64,000 nt of DNA from Candidatus Hydrogenedentota bacterium (GTDB lineage Bacteria > Hydrogenedentota > Hydrogenedentia > Hydrogenedentales > SLHB01): the NCBI GenBank assembly GCA_963745075.1, contig CAVUWV010000013.1:64001-128000 (forward strand), given 5' to 3'. This document shows positions 1-5,950 of the stretch, one piece after another; position 1 is the stretch's first letter; each line of letters starts with the position of its first letter. The translations under genes were made by a program, and so were the position numbers. The notes under the pieces were generated by a model. That model made no database searches, was not told where the DNA came from, and worked only from the letters and a program-made list of their open reading frames with translations.

Positions 1-355
1 TCGGCCTATTGGCTGGCTTATTCATCGGCTACATCGAGAACTTGGCGCGGGTGGCGTGGCTGCGAGATTGATGCGCGGGCCTTTAGCCGGCAAACAGTTT
101 AATCTTTACAAAAGCCCGATGATTATTGGCTCTACTCCACGAGCAGACATATATCTCTTCAAAGACCCTAGTATTTCACCCGAACACGCCTCAATTACTA
201 TCACTGGATCCAAATTCTTGTTGACCGACATGAACAGTCAATCCGGAGTATTCGTAAATGGTAGGCGTATTACTAAATGCATTCTCCAAAAGGGAGACGT
301 TGTGACCTTAGGTCAAACGGTGCTCAAGTACGACGATCGAGAAAAGAGGGGGTAA
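1..355 (+). CDS. Membrane-associated FHA-domain protein, 5'-truncated by the window edge, apparent frameshift near nt 66
   Basis: ORF 56-355 has FHA signatures (IIGS..RADI, SISPEHA, DMNSQSGVFVNG, LQKGDVVTLG). Frame 3 from nt 3 reads a hydrophobic GLLAGLFIGYIENLARVAWLR that joins LMRGPLAGKQF after a shift. Confidence 0.8.
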   Translation, partial: RPIGWLIHRLHRELGAGGVAARLMRGPLAGKQFNLYKSPMIIGSTPRADIYLFKDPSISPEHASITITGSKFLLTDMNSQSGVFVNGRRITKCILQKGDVVTLGQTVLKYDDREKRG

Positions 356-362
356 TACGGCT

Positions 363-1099
363 TTGCCAGCGATTAAGTTCCGGTGTCCGTCGTGTGGGAA
401 GACGATGCGAGCACCAATCGAAAGGGCTGGTTCCAAGGGTAAGTGTCCTGACTGTCTTTCCCCTATAGTTGTTCCAAGGCCAGTGTTCCAAGCAGTAGAA
501 CGTCCTTTTGCACAGCCGAGTTCTTCTGCCCCCGGGAACCGGTTTCTAATCGGACTCTGCCTGAGCGAATGCGTGCGAATCGTACCATCGCGGGAGAATA
601 TGTCCTCAATGCCACACCGAGATCGAGTTTAGGGGATCCCATCGTCAATTGCAGGGACTGCGACGTTAGCTCCCACGAACATTGTTATGAACGGGTTGGT
701 AGCTGTCCGAACGTCGAATGTCGCTCGCAATCAAATCCGCCACCTACACCCGCAAGCGGAACGCAGCAAATAGCACAAACAGCACCGGAACTTTCGGGAC
801 CCACAATATCCTGCCCATATTGCGGTGAAGCCATAATGGCCACCGCGAAGAAATGCAAATATTGTCAGGAATGGCTCGACGAATCTCTCCGAAAAATTAA
901 TGAGCGGATGGGTAAGAACGAGGACGACAACATGACGGCGGTTAACGTCCTGTTGTGCGTCTTCTGCTCAGGTATCGGCTGCGTTATGGGATTGATTTAC
1001 GCAATACAAGGCAAAAAGAAGGGGTGGAAGATGATGGTGTTAAGTATTGTCATTTCCTTCCTCTTCAGTCTGCTGAGAGCTATTATGGAGGAGTCGTAG
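363..1099 (+). CDS. Zn-ribbon + prokaryotic RING finger (Prok-RING_1-like) + Zn-ribbon + 2-TM membrane protein, reconstructed across three homopolymer indels
   Basis: N-terminal CPSC...CPDC. Joining frames at ~530, ~592 and ~629 gives ICPQCHTEIELGDPIVNCRDCDVSSHEHCYERVGSCPNVEC (C2-C...C2C-H-C-C-C), then CPYCGEAI...CKYC and two hydrophobic helices. Confidence 0.7.
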
Positions 1100-1102
1100 C
1101 CA

Positions 1103-1719
1103 ATGGCAGCGCCTAGTAATAAACCACACAGAGCTGGTCGGCGCGAGGCAGGACAAACCTGCCTTATCTGTCACGTACCGATCATTATTGGCGAATGGCT
1201 CACCTCATGTTCATCATGCAAGCTCCACTACCACCTCGAATGCTGGAATGAGAACGGTGGCTGCGCTCAGTACGGTTGCGACCAGGCTCCCGATGCAGAG
1301 CAATATGAAACGAATCAATTCCAGTCAAACGTGTGGGCCGAGGACAAGACGTGCCCAACTGCCATCAACGCATCAAGGCCGTGGCACTGAAATGCAGGTT
1401 TTGTGGGACGCTATTTGAAACGAGAGACTATGTCTCACAAGACGATTTCGCTAAACGTGAATATCGAGACCGAGAATATACGTTTGCACGAAATGCTCTC
1501 GTCCTTTTGTTTCTTCTCTCGATTACCGGATGTCTCAGCCCTGTCGCATTGATATTGCACCTCATCCTACGCTACGGCGGCCGTCTGGGTAGCAAGCTCG
1601 AGTTTAACCGATTTCCAGATGAACTCAAGGCCCTGAACCTGATAGGGCTCGTAATGAGTGGCGGACTTGTGGCTTTGGGCTTTCTTGCCTTATTGCTTCA
1701 AGCCTCACAGAGTATCTAA
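1103..1719 (+). CDS. Prokaryotic RING finger + Zn-ribbon + TM membrane protein, one frameshift at ~1355
   Basis: GQTCLICHVPIIIGEWLTSCSSCKLHYHLECWNENGGCAQYGC. Adding one C to the CCC run at ~1354 gives KTCPNCHQRIKAVALKCRFCG followed by hydrophobic segments. Confidence 0.75.
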
Positions 1720-1739
1720 AGCGGAGATGTTGAAGTTAC

Positions 1740-3014
1740 ATGGTGGCTTCGGAAGCAAGAGCTGAACATGAAAGGTGAGACCTGCCCAGCATGTGGTCGA
1801 TGCTTTGAGGTCGGTGAAGTTGGTTTCCACTTGCGAAGAGTGCCTCGCTGTTTATCATGTGCTGTGTTGGGAATCCGCGGGGGGGTGTGTCAACTGTTTC
1901 TCGGCCTGCTTCAAGCCCAGAGCACACTATAAAGTCCGAACCGGACCTTGTGATCTATGGATACGAAGCGCGTATGGCAAAACCACCTCCCCCTGGTATG
2001 CCCGTCCGACCAGCGGAAGAAGTCGCGGCGGAATTCGCGCCAAGGTCTTCGGTGGCGGGTAAGTGGCTGACCGGGGTAGCTGTATTCGCAGCGGTCCTGT
2101 CCGTAATGGCAATTCCAGGAGCCATTAGTGAGAACCTTCCCATGGTATTCGTGGGCGTTGTTTCGGCGGTTGTCGGAATCACGGTTGGAATCGCGGCTGC
2201 AATTCTCGCATGGACACAACATAGGTTTTGCCCTCTGTCCGTTGGTTCGGTGGTGATAAGTTGCTCAGTAATACTTGTGACAGGATTCGTGAGTGATCAT
2301 GTGTCAAGGGAAGATTCCCTATACGGTACAGGTATCACGGAACTGGAAAACTCGCAACTAACCGAAGCGCAACTTGCGAATCTTCCTGCTCCAATCGCCA
2401 ATGCCTTGCGGGCAAATGTTCTTATAGTGCATAAACGTCTCACGGAGACGACTTACGGGTCCGGAACGATTACTCGTGTCGCAGAGGGAAAAGTCTATAT
2501 ACTGACAAACAGACATGTATTGGGGGACGGCCAAGTCACAATTCACTTCTACTCTGGACAGTCTACCCGTGGTGAGATCGTATGGTTGGCACCGGGAGAC
2601 ATTGATCTTGCGTTTGTTGTATGTCACGCCGAGACAAACGTCGATTTTCCGGGCATTACAGTTCTTGATGGTCAAATGAATCCTGGCAATGGCTCCTTTG
2701 CCGTCGGCAATCCGATGCATCTGCCATGGACTTACACGAATGGCGCAATTTCTTCTGTTAGGTCTAGACAATACGGCGAACGGACGCTGTACGTGTACCA
2801 AACGCAGACTCCGATAAATCCTGGAAGCAGCGGTGGCGGGCTATATTCGGAAGACGGCGTATTGATCGGAGTCAATACCTGGACAGAAGATAAAGCTGTT
2901 TCTGAAGGTATTAACTTCAGCATTACAACAATGAGTCTTCTCGATTTGCTGCGTGAGGAGGAACTTCATCGTTTTATACGTGAAATCGCTACAATTGGCC
3001 AAGTAGAGGCATAA
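1740..3014 (+). CDS. Prokaryotic RING finger - 3 TM - trypsin-like (S1C/HtrA-type) serine protease fusion, N-terminus split by indels
   Basis: Reconstructed N-terminus ETCPACGRCFEVGE.VSTCEECLAVYHVLCWESAGGCVNC. ORF 1857-3014 has three hydrophobic helices and the protease triad motifs LTNRHV, DIDLA and INPGSSGGGL. No PDZ domain. Confidence 0.8.
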
Positions 3015-3050
3015 GGTGCTCGAACGAATAAGTGTGGAGATCTAGATCCT

Positions 3051-3934
3051 ATGAGCGTGCGTCTCAGACGGCTTACGTCAGATTATGAGAGAGTCCGAAC
3101 ACTATTTCAGGACAATCAACGGATTTGTTTAGTGGAAAAGACTGGGAAGCCGCCGGAGTACTACGTGTTTCAGTATCACGTGAGGAGTCTGCAGCAGGAC
3201 ATCGATTCAGGAACGTTACGGTGGGCCAACTCTTTTCGAGTTGAGATAAACTTACCAGGAACATACCCTCGCACATCTCCGCATTGCCGGGCGATTACAC
3301 CCGTGTTTCATCCGAATATCGCACCGCACTCCATCTGTATTGGCGACCATTGGGCCGCCGGTGAGTCCCTGGTAAACTTAATTGTTCGCATTGGCGAGAT
3401 GCTTGCCTATCAGTCGTACAACGTCAAAAGTCCTCTAAATGGAGATGCGGCACAATGGGCTGAAAAGAACAAGTCGCGTCTTCCGGTTGACCGTTTCGAC
3501 TTTTCCTCCTTACTTGCAAGAGGCGAAGTTTTGCGCGCCCACGAAGATCAGGTCAGCGGAGTATGCGCGAACTGCGGTCTCGAGGGGAGGGAGCTAAACT
3601 TCAGGTCTGCGTAAGTGGGCACACGACCTGCGAGGCTTGTCTGATACCCTGTGGACGATGTGGAAAACCAATGTGCATGGCCTGCGAGTTGATGAAATGC
3701 GATGTATGTGGTCAACCAACGTGCCCCCAATGCAGGGTGCGGTGCGCGATGTGCGGTAGCGTTGTATGCACTGATGACGCCACGCGGTGCAAAGTGTGCA
3801 AGGGGATTTATTGCCGTAATTGCTTGGTTAGGTGTTTCCGGTGCGGGTTTATCGTATGTATCAATCATATGAATAAGGTTAGGGACCCAGATGGCGAAAA
3901 GAAATTCGTTTGCAGTGTGTGCGGAAGCGATTGA
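3051..3934 (+). CDS. Ubiquitin-conjugating enzyme E2 (UBC fold) with a C-terminal RING-like/Cys-rich Zn-binding region, frameshift at ~3585
   Basis: RLRRLTSDY, YPRTSP, TPVFHPNI....ICIGDHW, SPLNGDAAQWA give the canonical UBC HPN motif and catalytic Cys. ORF 3563-3934 continues CANC... into CVSGHTTCEAC and tandem CxxC-x4-CxxC units. RBS GGAG upstream. Confidence 0.9.
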
Positions 3935-4418
3935 CAACGTGAGATTTGCCGACCCCGTACCGGGGGTGCGCAATCTGTCAAAGATTTTGCCGTTTACGTG
4001 GCAAGTCGAGCACAAAGCCTCGTCTCACTTAACTGCCATTATTCTGTTTGCATGTTTCGTTGGCTTTCCCTTCCTGTTGAATATTGAACAGCCCAACGGT
4101 ACGCAGGATAGTTGTGTGTCAATCGGTGGTCTGCAACTGCCCCGAATTTGCATGAGCCAAAGCTTGTTTGGAGTTCGGTGTCCAGGATGTGGTCTCACAC
4201 GGTCATTTGTCGCGCTAACTCACGGCGAATGGGCTGCCTCAATCCAACATCATCGACTAGGACCGGTGGTGTACCTGTACTTTGTCGCGCTGATCCTCTT
4301 TCATGCTTACGGTTTATTTGCACGTGCTCGGCCCTTGCCGCGGGGGCTGGTGTACGGTCACCAGATTGCCGCCTTAGTTCTAATTGGGGGGTTGTTCTTG
4401 ATTTGGGCGTTCCAGTAA
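3891..4418 (+). CDS. DUF2752-family membrane protein (true start may be GTG ~3939)
   Basis: C..Q.LFGVRCPGCGLTRSFVALTHG motif flanked by hydrophobic helices. Confidence 0.8.
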   Translation: MAKRNSFAVCAEAIDNVRFADPVPGVRNLSKILPFTWQVEHKASSHLTAIILFACFVGFPFLLNIEQPNGTQDSCVSIGGLQLPRICMSQSLFGVRCPGCGLTRSFVALTHGEWAASIQHHRLGPVVYLYFVALILFHAYGLFARARPLPRGLVYGHQIAALVLIGGLFLIWAFQ

Positions 4419-4469
4419 GGCGCATCAGAACACGTTGTTGGTCCGCGGTACGAAGACTCTAGGTATCGT

Positions 4470-4505
4470 CGAGTACGAGTACGAGACCGAGTAGGAAGTA
4501 CGATT
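4470..4505. repeat. Degenerate CGAGTA hexamer tandem repeat between convergent genes
   Basis: cgagta-cgagta-cgagac-cgagta-ggaagta-cgatt. Confidence 0.6.
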
Positions 4506-4545
4506 AACAGGACCCGAAAAGAGTTAATTTGCTCTAGCGTTACGG

Positions 4546-5697
4546 CTACTCGACCACCTGCTCGAATACCGCAAAATCGCCCGGATTCCACGCTTGCGCG
4601 ATGATGTAGAGTTTCCCGTCGAGAATGATCCCCGTGGCATTGTGGACGTGCTGGAAATTCTCCAACCCGAGTTCGGCCTTCGGCATAATGGTCGAAACCA
4701 CCTTTTCGTCTTCGAGGATGTAGATCGGCGCGCCGAGGTCGCGGTTCGGGCCGTGTAGGCAACCGACGATCATGTACGGACCCACATAGTCGACGTCACA
4801 GGGGAAAGCACCGGCCGGCACGTTCACGGTATCGCGATACTGGCCGAAACGCGTGAACCGCTCCAGCTCCGCATTGGGGCGATCCGAGACCACGAGGCGT
4901 TTCCGATCCGGCGAGACGGTGATTCCATGGCCCGTGCCGAACTGGCCGGGCGCGTCGCCTTTTCCGCCGAACACCAAGTCGTACCAATGGGACGCGAAGG
5001 GTTTGGTCGAGTCGATTTGTGCGGTCAGCACGTAATCCAAGTCCGAGTAGCCCGTCGTGATGTAGTAGAGCCCATTCAACTGCTCCACGTCGGTGGGCAC
5101 GAACTTTCCGCCGCCCGCGAAGTAGCCGTCCACCGTCGGTTCGTCGAAGCTGTGGCCGGTCGGCGTATCGAGGGTGTTGACCAGCTTTCCGTCCAACGTC
5201 GTCGTAAACACCTTGCCCGCGTCGTTGGCCGGGAAGACCAGGAACGGCGTGCCGTCCGGGTCGTACCAGATGGTGGTGTTGTGCTCGTTCGTGTCGCGCA
5301 CTTCGGGCGCCGTATCCAGGAGTTCCGTCGAGGCCAGGTCGGCGCTCATCTTGATGATGCCGGCCCCGGGCAACGCGAAATAAGTTTGGCCATAGCCTTC
5401 CCGACGATCCACGGCGAACCCGCCGTGCGCTTTCACGAGCACCTCGATGGCTTGCGCGGGTAGATGGTCGCTCGTGTACAGCACGCGGAATTTCAATTTG
5501 CCCTGCCCGCTGACCGCCGGCTCTGCACCGGTCCGCACCGCCGCCAACGGGAGCAGGTGCTGTGATACGTGGGACGCGACTTGTACGGCGGCGTCGTGAT
5601 CGTGATCGCCGTGGCCGGGATGGGCGAAGGCCGGAACGGCCACACCCATCGCTAACATCACCGCGACAAGCACAGAAATGCTGAATGAACGGAACAT
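4546..5697 (-). CDS. Secreted NHL-repeat-like/beta-propeller protein with a His-rich N-terminus
   Basis: ATG at 5697 with a GGAGAGG RBS. Signal peptide ends AFA-HPGHGDHDHD. GKGDAPGQFGTGHGITV and VSDRPN are NHL-like motifs. Confidence 0.65.
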   Translation of the reverse strand: MFRSFSISVLVAVMLAMGVAVPAFAHPGHGDHDHDAAVQVASHVSQHLLPLAAVRTGAEPAVSGQGKLKFRVLYTSDHLPAQAIEVLVKAHGGFAVDRREGYGQTYFALPGAGIIKMSADLASTELLDTAPEVRDTNEHNTTIWYDPDGTPFLVFPANDAGKVFTTTLDGKLVNTLDTPTGHSFDEPTVDGYFAGGGKFVPTDVEQLNGLYYITTGYSDLDYVLTAQIDSTKPFASHWYDLVFGGKGDAPGQFGTGHGITVSPDRKRLVVSDRPNAELERFTRFGQYRDTVNVPAGAFPCDVDYVGPYMIVGCLHGPNRDLGAPIYILEDEKVVSTIMPKAELGLENFQHVHNATGIILDGKLYIIAQAWNPGDFAVFEQVVE

Positions 5698-5950
5698 ACC
5701 AGGACCTCTCCCTCGGTTGGTTTGCCTTGCAAGCGCAAAGTATGGCAGGAATCGGTCGAGGCAGGCAAGTAGAAACACCGAAAGGCGGACGGTGTGCGGC
5801 TCGATTGATGACATCGCCGAGGGATATCTTGAACGCGACATGCAAAACGCAGTAGAACGTGGGACACATCCTGGCCGCCGCGGTGGATCGAATTCATTGG
5901 GCGGCTAACGATCGAGGCGAAATCGGTTGGATACTGGAAAGGGTACAGAC

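Follow-up and report, generated by a model that had tools for sequence, protein, structure and literature searches.

Bacterial operons that encode RING-type E3 proteins together with an E1, an E2, a JAB peptidase and YukD-like ubiquitin-like proteins (Ubls) are said to have been predicted in 2011 by Burroughs, Iyer and Aravind in Mol Biosyst. In a review from 2014, the passage that cites this paper concerns 'related operons' of Actinobacteria, Planctomycetes and Acidobacteria, which it describes as uncharacterized. The introduction of a preprint from 2024 (PMC11601603) presents CBASS, Bil and Bub as the bench-studied bacterial Ubl families, and the relevant parts of two further papers (PMC5654768, PMC6043591) describe the in vitro reconstitution of a system of ubiquitin, E1, E2, a small RING protein and Rpn11 from Caldiarchaeum subterraneum. 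Here, we present an operon of the predicted class from a Candidatus Hydrogenedentota genome. The window, i.e. the whole stretch of DNA analysed, comprises 64,000 nucleotides (nt) and corresponds to contig C13:64001-128000, window position 1 being C13:64001; the operon straddles its left end.

In our reading, window positions 1-4418 hold the 3' half of an operon which was acquired horizontally and whose products quite probably attach a Ubl to proteins on the cytoplasmic side of the membrane. Sequence and structural models show which genes are present and in what order, the catalytic motifs, the insertion site, the synteny across phyla and the RING and beta-grasp folds, and the reading draws on all of these.

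Operon layout and distribution

With the 16 kb upstream of the window retrieved as locus L002 (L002 position 2246 is C13:50246), the whole operon was found to extend over about 7.9 kb, from C13:60545 to C13:68418, and to start 3.5 kb upstream of the window. Ubl, E1, JAB and E2 genes are neighbours on one strand within these 7.9 kb. According to a scan of open reading frames (ORFs) and Pfam matches, the genes of the upstream half are tightly packed and lie on the same strand as the window genes. The genes are listed in operon order, with lengths in amino acids (aa); coordinates without a prefix are window positions.

L002 12545-12883, plus strand: Ubl of 112 aa with a YukD-type Pfam match, ending in ...QPEITAGGFCKQ
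L002 12880-14064, plus strand: ThiF-type E1 (Pfam ThiF, E 1e-48)
L002 14064-14888, plus strand: JAB peptidase with a hydrophobic segment as putative membrane anchor (HxHx7SxxD in the translation; Pfam JAB, E 1e-8)
After JAB in the upstream half, plus strand: small coiled-coil ORF
1-355, gene start at about C13:63291, plus strand: 3' end, with the FHA domain, of the gene for a predicted polytopic membrane FHA protein (Pfam FHA, E 7e-18 over 2-355)
363-1099, plus strand: RING1, with zinc ribbon, Prok-RING_1 finger, zinc ribbon and two hydrophobic segments (Prok-RING_1, 24.7 bits; Zn_ribbon matches)
1103-1719, plus strand: RING2, with Prok-RING_1 finger, zinc ribbon and two hydrophobic segments, interrupted by one insertion or deletion (indel) near 1345 (Prok-RING_1, 31.9 bits)
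1768-3014, plus strand: a single gene for RING3 and a trypsin-like serine protease, joined by three hydrophobic segments (Trypsin_2, E 5e-18; Prok-RING_1, 23.3 bits)
3051-3934, plus strand: E2 of the UBC fold with HPN...Cys96 and a Cys-rich tail of about 110 aa (UQ_con, E 3e-11 over 3051-3614; FHPNIAPHSIC)
3891-4418, plus strand: membrane protein of the DUF2752 family with the conserved motif CPxCG; the operon ends with this gene (Pfam DUF2752, E 5e-17)

A first-pass annotation, made from the letters of the window, had described six tightly spaced genes for an FHA protein, three RING proteins, an E2 with HPN...C and a DUF2752 protein. All of these are present on the plus strand, whereas the third RING and the protease, which it had separated, belong to one gene, and the operon does not begin within the window. 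The Ubl, E1 and JAB genes for which it had pointed upstream all lie directly upstream in the 16 kb examined. Its impression of an AT-rich block agrees with a GC content of 50.6% in the operon compared to 59.1% in the genome, frame breaks do interrupt the RING genes as it had supposed, and the membrane association it proposed is in line with the membrane segments that a hydropathy script predicts in most operon parts.

A relative of the E2 was detected by a pattern scan in 218 species genomes. For the comparison of synteny, which the first-pass annotation had also suggested, 80 loci were searched by tblastn with the window proteins, and the counts refer to those 44 whose flanks reached at least 7.5 kb upstream and 1.8 kb downstream. 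Ubl, E1, JAB, FHA, RING, protease and DUF2752 are all located on the same strand in 33 of the 44 loci, in the order seen here. Counted separately, the protease was found in 41, FHA and RING in 39 each, E1, JAB and DUF2752 in 38 each and the Ubl in 37, some of the missing parts being due to operons longer than the search span. The gene order recurs, by record labels, in Planctomycetota, Verrucomicrobiota (including Victivallales), Sumerlaeota, Riflebacteria, Myxococcota and others. Flanking genes differ among the loci: the most frequent family of them is found in 9 loci, and sensor kinases, ABC transporters and the like make up these families.

Carriers are rare in the phylum of the window genome (4/135 genomes, the window genome included) and absent from the five other genomes of the same genus (0/5), while 50 of 401 sampled genomes labelled Planctomycetota carry the operon. 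Under that label also falls at least one cultured strain with the operon, Lacipirellula limnantheis I41 (L068). In the sole carrier of the same family (G130) the E2 is 45% identical and the operon is differently ordered with a single RING; this divergence and the different order point to separate acquisitions.

Between the FHA gene and the RING-protease gene, related loci (L063, L070, L084, L085, L087) carry anything from one to about six genes for RING or zinc-ribbon membrane proteins, and in several Pirellulales-type loci a small additional gene that the RING1 query matches is placed between those for Ubl and E1. In L067 and L096, DUF2752 is placed between RING genes instead of after the E2.

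Catalytic motifs, predicted folds and a proposed mechanism

The YukD score of the Ubl is just at the Pfam cut-off (27.2 bits versus 27.0). Its AlphaFold2 (AF2) model shows a beta-grasp, for which SUMO, ubiquitin and NEDD8 are the top PDB matches (E ~2e-6, probability 1.0). The C-terminal glycine is conserved, the motif QPEITAG is invariant in 18 sequences, and the mean column identity across phyla amounts to 54%. Among 41 listed Ubl ORFs, 36 contain QPEITAG, which forms the exact C-terminus in 6/36 and is followed by a tail in 30/36; this mix of tailed and untailed ends would fit processing by JAB. The latter is fused to a coiled coil in some relatives (434 aa in the related locus L032). Invariant features in the alignment of the E1 are GxGxxG, DN, two CxxC pairs and Cys191, and the solved relatives closest to its profile are UBA7, UBA1 and the NEDD8 E1 (E 1e-40 to 1e-34), which rank above ThiF and MoeB.

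In the E2, H87, P88, N89 and C96 do not vary among 18 sequences, whose mean column identity is 60%, and with HPN and cysteine retained the identity assigned in the first reading stands. Not so the end of the gene, which runs on into the Cys-rich ORF 3563-3934. Both form one protein, and the alignment with the closest relatives, which have 293-300 aa, continues across the break (2784 of 2824 candidates reached E 1e-5 or better; the closest ones were taken from the best 120). The nearest solved relatives of the E2 profile are eukaryotic, namely UBE2C, UBE2K, UBE2A and UBE2N. The tail (alignment columns 172-299) contains about 26 nearly invariant Cys and His residues with repeated CxxC spacing, has no match in Pfam and is confined to one clade, being detected in 15 of the 44 loci. 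Tails differ in other clades, as exemplified by a zinc ribbon with a helical repeat region in G130. The parts of a conjugation cascade appear to be in place: an E2 with HPN and Cys, a predicted beta-grasp Ubl with an exposable Gly, and an E1 that has adenylation motifs as well as a conserved Cys.

The finger of RING2 follows the pattern C-x2-C-x11-C-x2-C-x4-H-x2-C-x6-C-x4-C. The RING fold that the first-pass annotation had read into such Cys/His motifs is predicted with high confidence: the AF2 model of RING2, built from 23 sequences, reaches values of 95-98 in the predicted local distance difference test over residues 11-60 and suggests a cross-brace RING fold. In a Foldseek search, 14 of the first 15 PDB matches listed are RING-H2 domains of E3s, several of which were solved with an E2. 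The top matches are RNF12, RMR1, RNF13 and RNF38 with probability 1.0 and, as expected of a small domain, E values of only 5e-3 to 3e-2. According to the alignment, the finger retains the Ile of C-x-I-C and the Trp after H-x2-C; mutation of the corresponding positions I30 or W58 impaired the archaeal RING cascade, as the relevant part of PMC5654768 reports. A complex prediction for E2 residues 1-160 and RING2 residues 10-75 scored 0.05 compared to a mark of 0.32, which speaks neither for nor against binding. The intact RING1 homologue in L032 has 251 aa (Prok-RING_1, 33.9 bits). In 15 relatives, RING3 and protease are combined in one protein of about 430-460 aa, and the protease triad His220, Asp250 and Ser325 is invariant in 16 sequences. 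Hydropathy of the intact L032 RING proteins, a crude method, gives 2, 2 and 3 segments.

The membrane part and the FHA part belong to one protein, the intact relatives of which have 353-366 aa; the tblastn match to the 359-aa protein of L032 spans C13:63291-64346 with two stops in a short out-of-frame stretch. As phospho-threonine-contacting residues of FHA domains we took the Arg of GR, the Ser of SxxH and the Asn of NG. In an alignment of 16 sequences, the Gly and His of these motifs are invariant, while the Arg position is Ser in 15 sequences, the Asn position mostly Asp or Ser, and the Ser position mostly Glu, Ala or Val, with Ser kept in the window copy. Moreover, no recurring kinase, phosphatase, AAA ATPase or similar gene was found beside the operon among 408 flanking ORFs of related loci. 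Because the contact residues are mostly replaced and no kinase or phosphatase gene recurs nearby, the phospho-threonine input through the FHA domain that had been suggested in the first reading is doubtful. DUF2752 lies downstream of the E2 in 38 of the 44 loci; a protein-atlas search with it returned DUF2752 clusters only.

A sequence of steps can be proposed on this basis. JAB would trim the short tail of the Ubl (GFCKQ here) and expose the invariant ...QPEITAG end. The E1 would adenylate the C-terminal glycine and accept the Ubl on a cysteine, for which the invariant Cys191 is the candidate, and the Ubl would be transferred from there to Cys96 of the E2. The RING proteins, held in the membrane by C-terminal hairpins, may bring the Ubl-charged E2 to membrane-proximal targets. 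The protease of RING3 lies past three predicted spans and would face the periplasm, and tagging inside could in this way be coupled to proteolysis outside. JAB may also take the tag off again. ERAD-like quality control (ERAD, endoplasmic reticulum-associated degradation), signalling and defence, which the first-pass annotation had offered as roles, are conjectural. A more far-reaching model, decidedly speculative in our estimation, places the three RINGs, an FHA scaffold, the tethered JAB and DUF2752 in one inner-membrane complex, in which cytoplasmic tagging would switch or feed the periplasm-facing protease. Such a complex would be a bacterial counterpart of ERAD or of regulated proteolysis that moves between phyla as a single 8-kb unit.

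Insertion site, frame breaks and rival explanations

The operon and a 1.3-kb spacer make up an island of 9.3 kb (C13:59230-68545). A histidine-kinase gene and a gene for a 431-aa protein, which flank the island, are 9.3 kb apart here and 20-30 bp apart in four genomes of the same genus. The low GC content and this empty site in four genomes indicate a horizontal insertion, and the recent horizontal origin of the operon in the window genome is well documented by sequence comparison. The window copy represents a clean example of such an insertion with a known empty site. Two features at its right end lie in the window.

4419-4545, no strand assigned: right end of the island, at the site that is empty in four same-genus genomes
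4546-5841, minus strand: gene of the 431-aa protein, native flank, adjoining the histidine-kinase gene in same-genus genomes

No tRNA gene was found adjoining the island, and no inverted repeats were found at its ends, where, apart from a short pair that looks like chance, the search gave one direct repeat, of 42 nt, in the spacer. The copies of the direct repeat (L002 11224-11265 and 11624-11665) are 90% identical and 400 nt apart. The spacer, at the left end, is gene-poor, its only ORF (128 aa, minus strand) being without a Pfam match. The 431-aa protein has no Pfam match either; it occurs with 71-75% identity in all five same-genus genomes and shows a hydrophobic N-terminus followed by a His-rich stretch.

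Several points weigh against reading the operon as an active conjugation system at the membrane, among them the number of frame breaks. At least 9-10 breaks lie between the 3' part of JAB and the E2: one between JAB and the coiled coil, at least two in the FHA gene, three in RING1 (frames 363-632 and 569-1099 and a short third-frame stretch with the first Cys pair), one in RING2, two in the RING3-protease gene (at about 1817-1821, and at or after a G7 run near 1880) and one in the E2 (near 3584-3590). This is about ten-fold the background of 0.105/kb in 126 conserved genes of at least 250 aa, 14 of which are broken relative to a same-genus genome (18 frame changes in 171.9 kb); the expectation for 7.9 kb is 0.83 breaks, and the Poisson P for 7 or more is 2.6e-5. 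The operon contains no excess of homopolymers of at least 4 letters (8.9/kb versus 10.4/kb in the genome) or of GATC (2.8/kb versus 5.6/kb) that might explain them. A public protein of 130 aa (P0006), encoded on a different public contig of 9.4 kb, is an E2 fragment with 97% identity that stops where the window E2 stops prematurely, so some breaks may be real. All this would suit a dead relic, i.e. real mutations in a cassette that decayed after its acquisition, an explanation that we consider somewhat unlikely in view of the state of the assembly and of the proteins. The assembly is indel-prone, as seen in the conserved genes counted above and in EF-Tu, whose gene falls into two frames that overlap (L002 2246-3437 = C13:50246-51437). 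Every break is an indel, with no nonsense substitution once the frame is followed, and the Ubl, E1 and DUF2752 genes are unbroken. The window copy keeps 62/64 otherwise-invariant columns in the E2, 78/80 in the E1, 19/19 in the protease and 24/24 in the Ubl, which is no worse than in intact relatives under the same test and not to be expected after the neutral time needed to fix ten indels. The FHA gene keeps 28/35, with the deviations where the frame is off. Because the assembly is indel-prone and almost all invariant residues are kept, most of the breaks are probably assembly errors, and the integrity of the operon as assembled is doubtful. One DNA run of a soil metagenome, and no RNA run, was listed as containing a small share of the stretch; pieces of contigs match positions 1915-2130, 2929-3079, 3158-3327, 3629-3789 and 3958-4114 without gaps and with one differing letter; all five lie in the window, none in the upstream half, and they span no frame break.

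Further points against an active system at the membrane concern the RING proteins, the membrane topology, which comes from a crude hydropathy script, and the lack of any bench study of a family member in our literature search. The Pfam family Prok-RING_1 (PF14446), which we take to have been built for proteins of these operons, has a curated cut-off of 29.1 bits; RING2 passes it, while RING1 and RING3, both split by indels, fall below, and of the intact fingers in L032 (33.9, 40.8 and 21.2 bits) one is still below. A non-basic residue follows the last Zn ligand, so the 'linchpin' of many RING E3s, a position whose role is treated in the relevant part of PMC5654768, is not evident. The ligand pattern C4HC3 is common to PHD and C1 fingers, and weak Pfam matches to PHD, C1_1 and zf-HC5HC2H were obtained. 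The fingers might then be PHD- or C1-like binding modules, zinc-ribbon membrane adaptors or substrates, and the E2 would need no E3 for the transfer of the Ubl. Further down its list, the fold search also gives some zinc fingers of the C1 and PARP types, and no E3 is among the components of the Bil and CBASS pathways listed in the introduction of PMC11601603. Such a role is distinctly improbable in our judgement, given that RING-H2 domains of known E3s make up nearly all of the first fold matches listed, that the Ile and Trp equivalent to the archaeal I30 and W58 are kept, and that RING genes adjoin the E2 in 39 of the 44 loci. The purpose of the tagging could also be a different one, if the operon were an anti-phage or conflict system like CBASS Cap2/Cap3, Bil and Bub that places the Ubl onto an invader protein or employs the protease as effector. 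The patchy distribution and the recent insertion as a low-GC island would agree with defence, the protease domain weakly matches the PADLOC models RT-Protease_XI and LmuA, and the three bacterial Ubl operon families bench-studied by 2024 act in phage defence or stress according to the same introduction (PMC11601603). The remaining parts offer less for this view: E2, Ubl, RING, FHA and DUF2752 match no model of PADLOC-DB 2.0, which Bub may post-date, and the matches of E1 and JAB to CBASS E1-E2 and JAB models are no more than weak and partial (E 1e-7 to 2e-13). Flanking genes are not common to the loci, and Ubl and E2 are strongly conserved across phyla, whereas many defence systems have fast-diverging parts. 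We therefore regard a defence function as fairly improbable and prefer the tagging of proteins at the membrane.

Programmed frameshifting was considered for the breaks and ruled out, the sites being too many and their contexts unrelated. At the frame changes counted genome-wide in conserved genes, CGATCG occurs in 3 and GATC in 5 of 22 junction windows, a hint that a long-read assembly went wrong systematically at a methylated motif. P0006 seems to have a second break further upstream. Indel-prone assemblies hide such operons from annotation.

Relation to known systems

Eukaryotic membrane RING E3s resemble the window proteins in having a membrane-tethered RING, and RNF13 and RMR1 are among the five best fold matches. 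MARCH/RING-CH and ERAD ligases are likewise membrane RING E3s. Membership in these families is not seen at the sequence level, the order of RING and membrane spans is different, and we know of no RING-protease fusion in the eukaryotic families.

Bil (BilABCD), CBASS Cap2/Cap3 and Bub share with the operon the combination of E1, E2, Ubl and peptidase as well as a patchy occurrence (PMC11601603, PMC11601596). In the relevant passages of these papers they are described without a RING, Cap2 joins an E2 and an E1 in one protein, and the intermediates of Bub are oxyesters on Ser/Tyr. In contrast, the profile of the window E2 matches eukaryotic E2s, and neither E2 nor Ubl has a PADLOC match.

The operon of Caldiarchaeum subterraneum is alike in that the tail of a pro-ubiquitin is cut by a JAMM peptidase, a cascade leads from E1 over E2 to a RING E3, and E1 and E2 are eukaryote-like (PMC5654768, PMC6043591). 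As far as the relevant passages of these papers describe it, it has five soluble components, a Gly-Gly end and a single small RING, whereas the window operon comprises 10-11 genes with mostly membrane-anchored products, an Ala-Gly end and three RINGs, in addition to FHA, protease and DUF2752. The archaeal cascade is the only reconstituted prokaryotic one found in the literature, in which no bench test of a bacterial E1-E2-RING cascade was found. Since the present family is large, its order fixed and self-contained, its E1 and E2 eukaryote-like and a cultured strain exists, it offers a practical route to RING-dependent Ubl tagging in bacteria.

The closest likeness is to the Prok-RING_1-type operons of 2011, which are reported to combine a YukD-type Ubl, a ThiF-type E1, an HPN E2, JAB and transmembrane RINGs and to occur sporadically, including in Planctomycetes. 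The first-pass annotation rated the novelty of the locus too high, as operons with membrane RINGs had been predicted by then, judging from the citation in the 2014 review. The operon type is widespread, and the tagging of proteins at the membrane by it is likely on the evidence of sequences and models. No difference from the 2011 class can be demonstrated; the window operon is a complete member of this computationally predicted and already known class, not a new kind of system, and is found in a phylum where such operons are rare.

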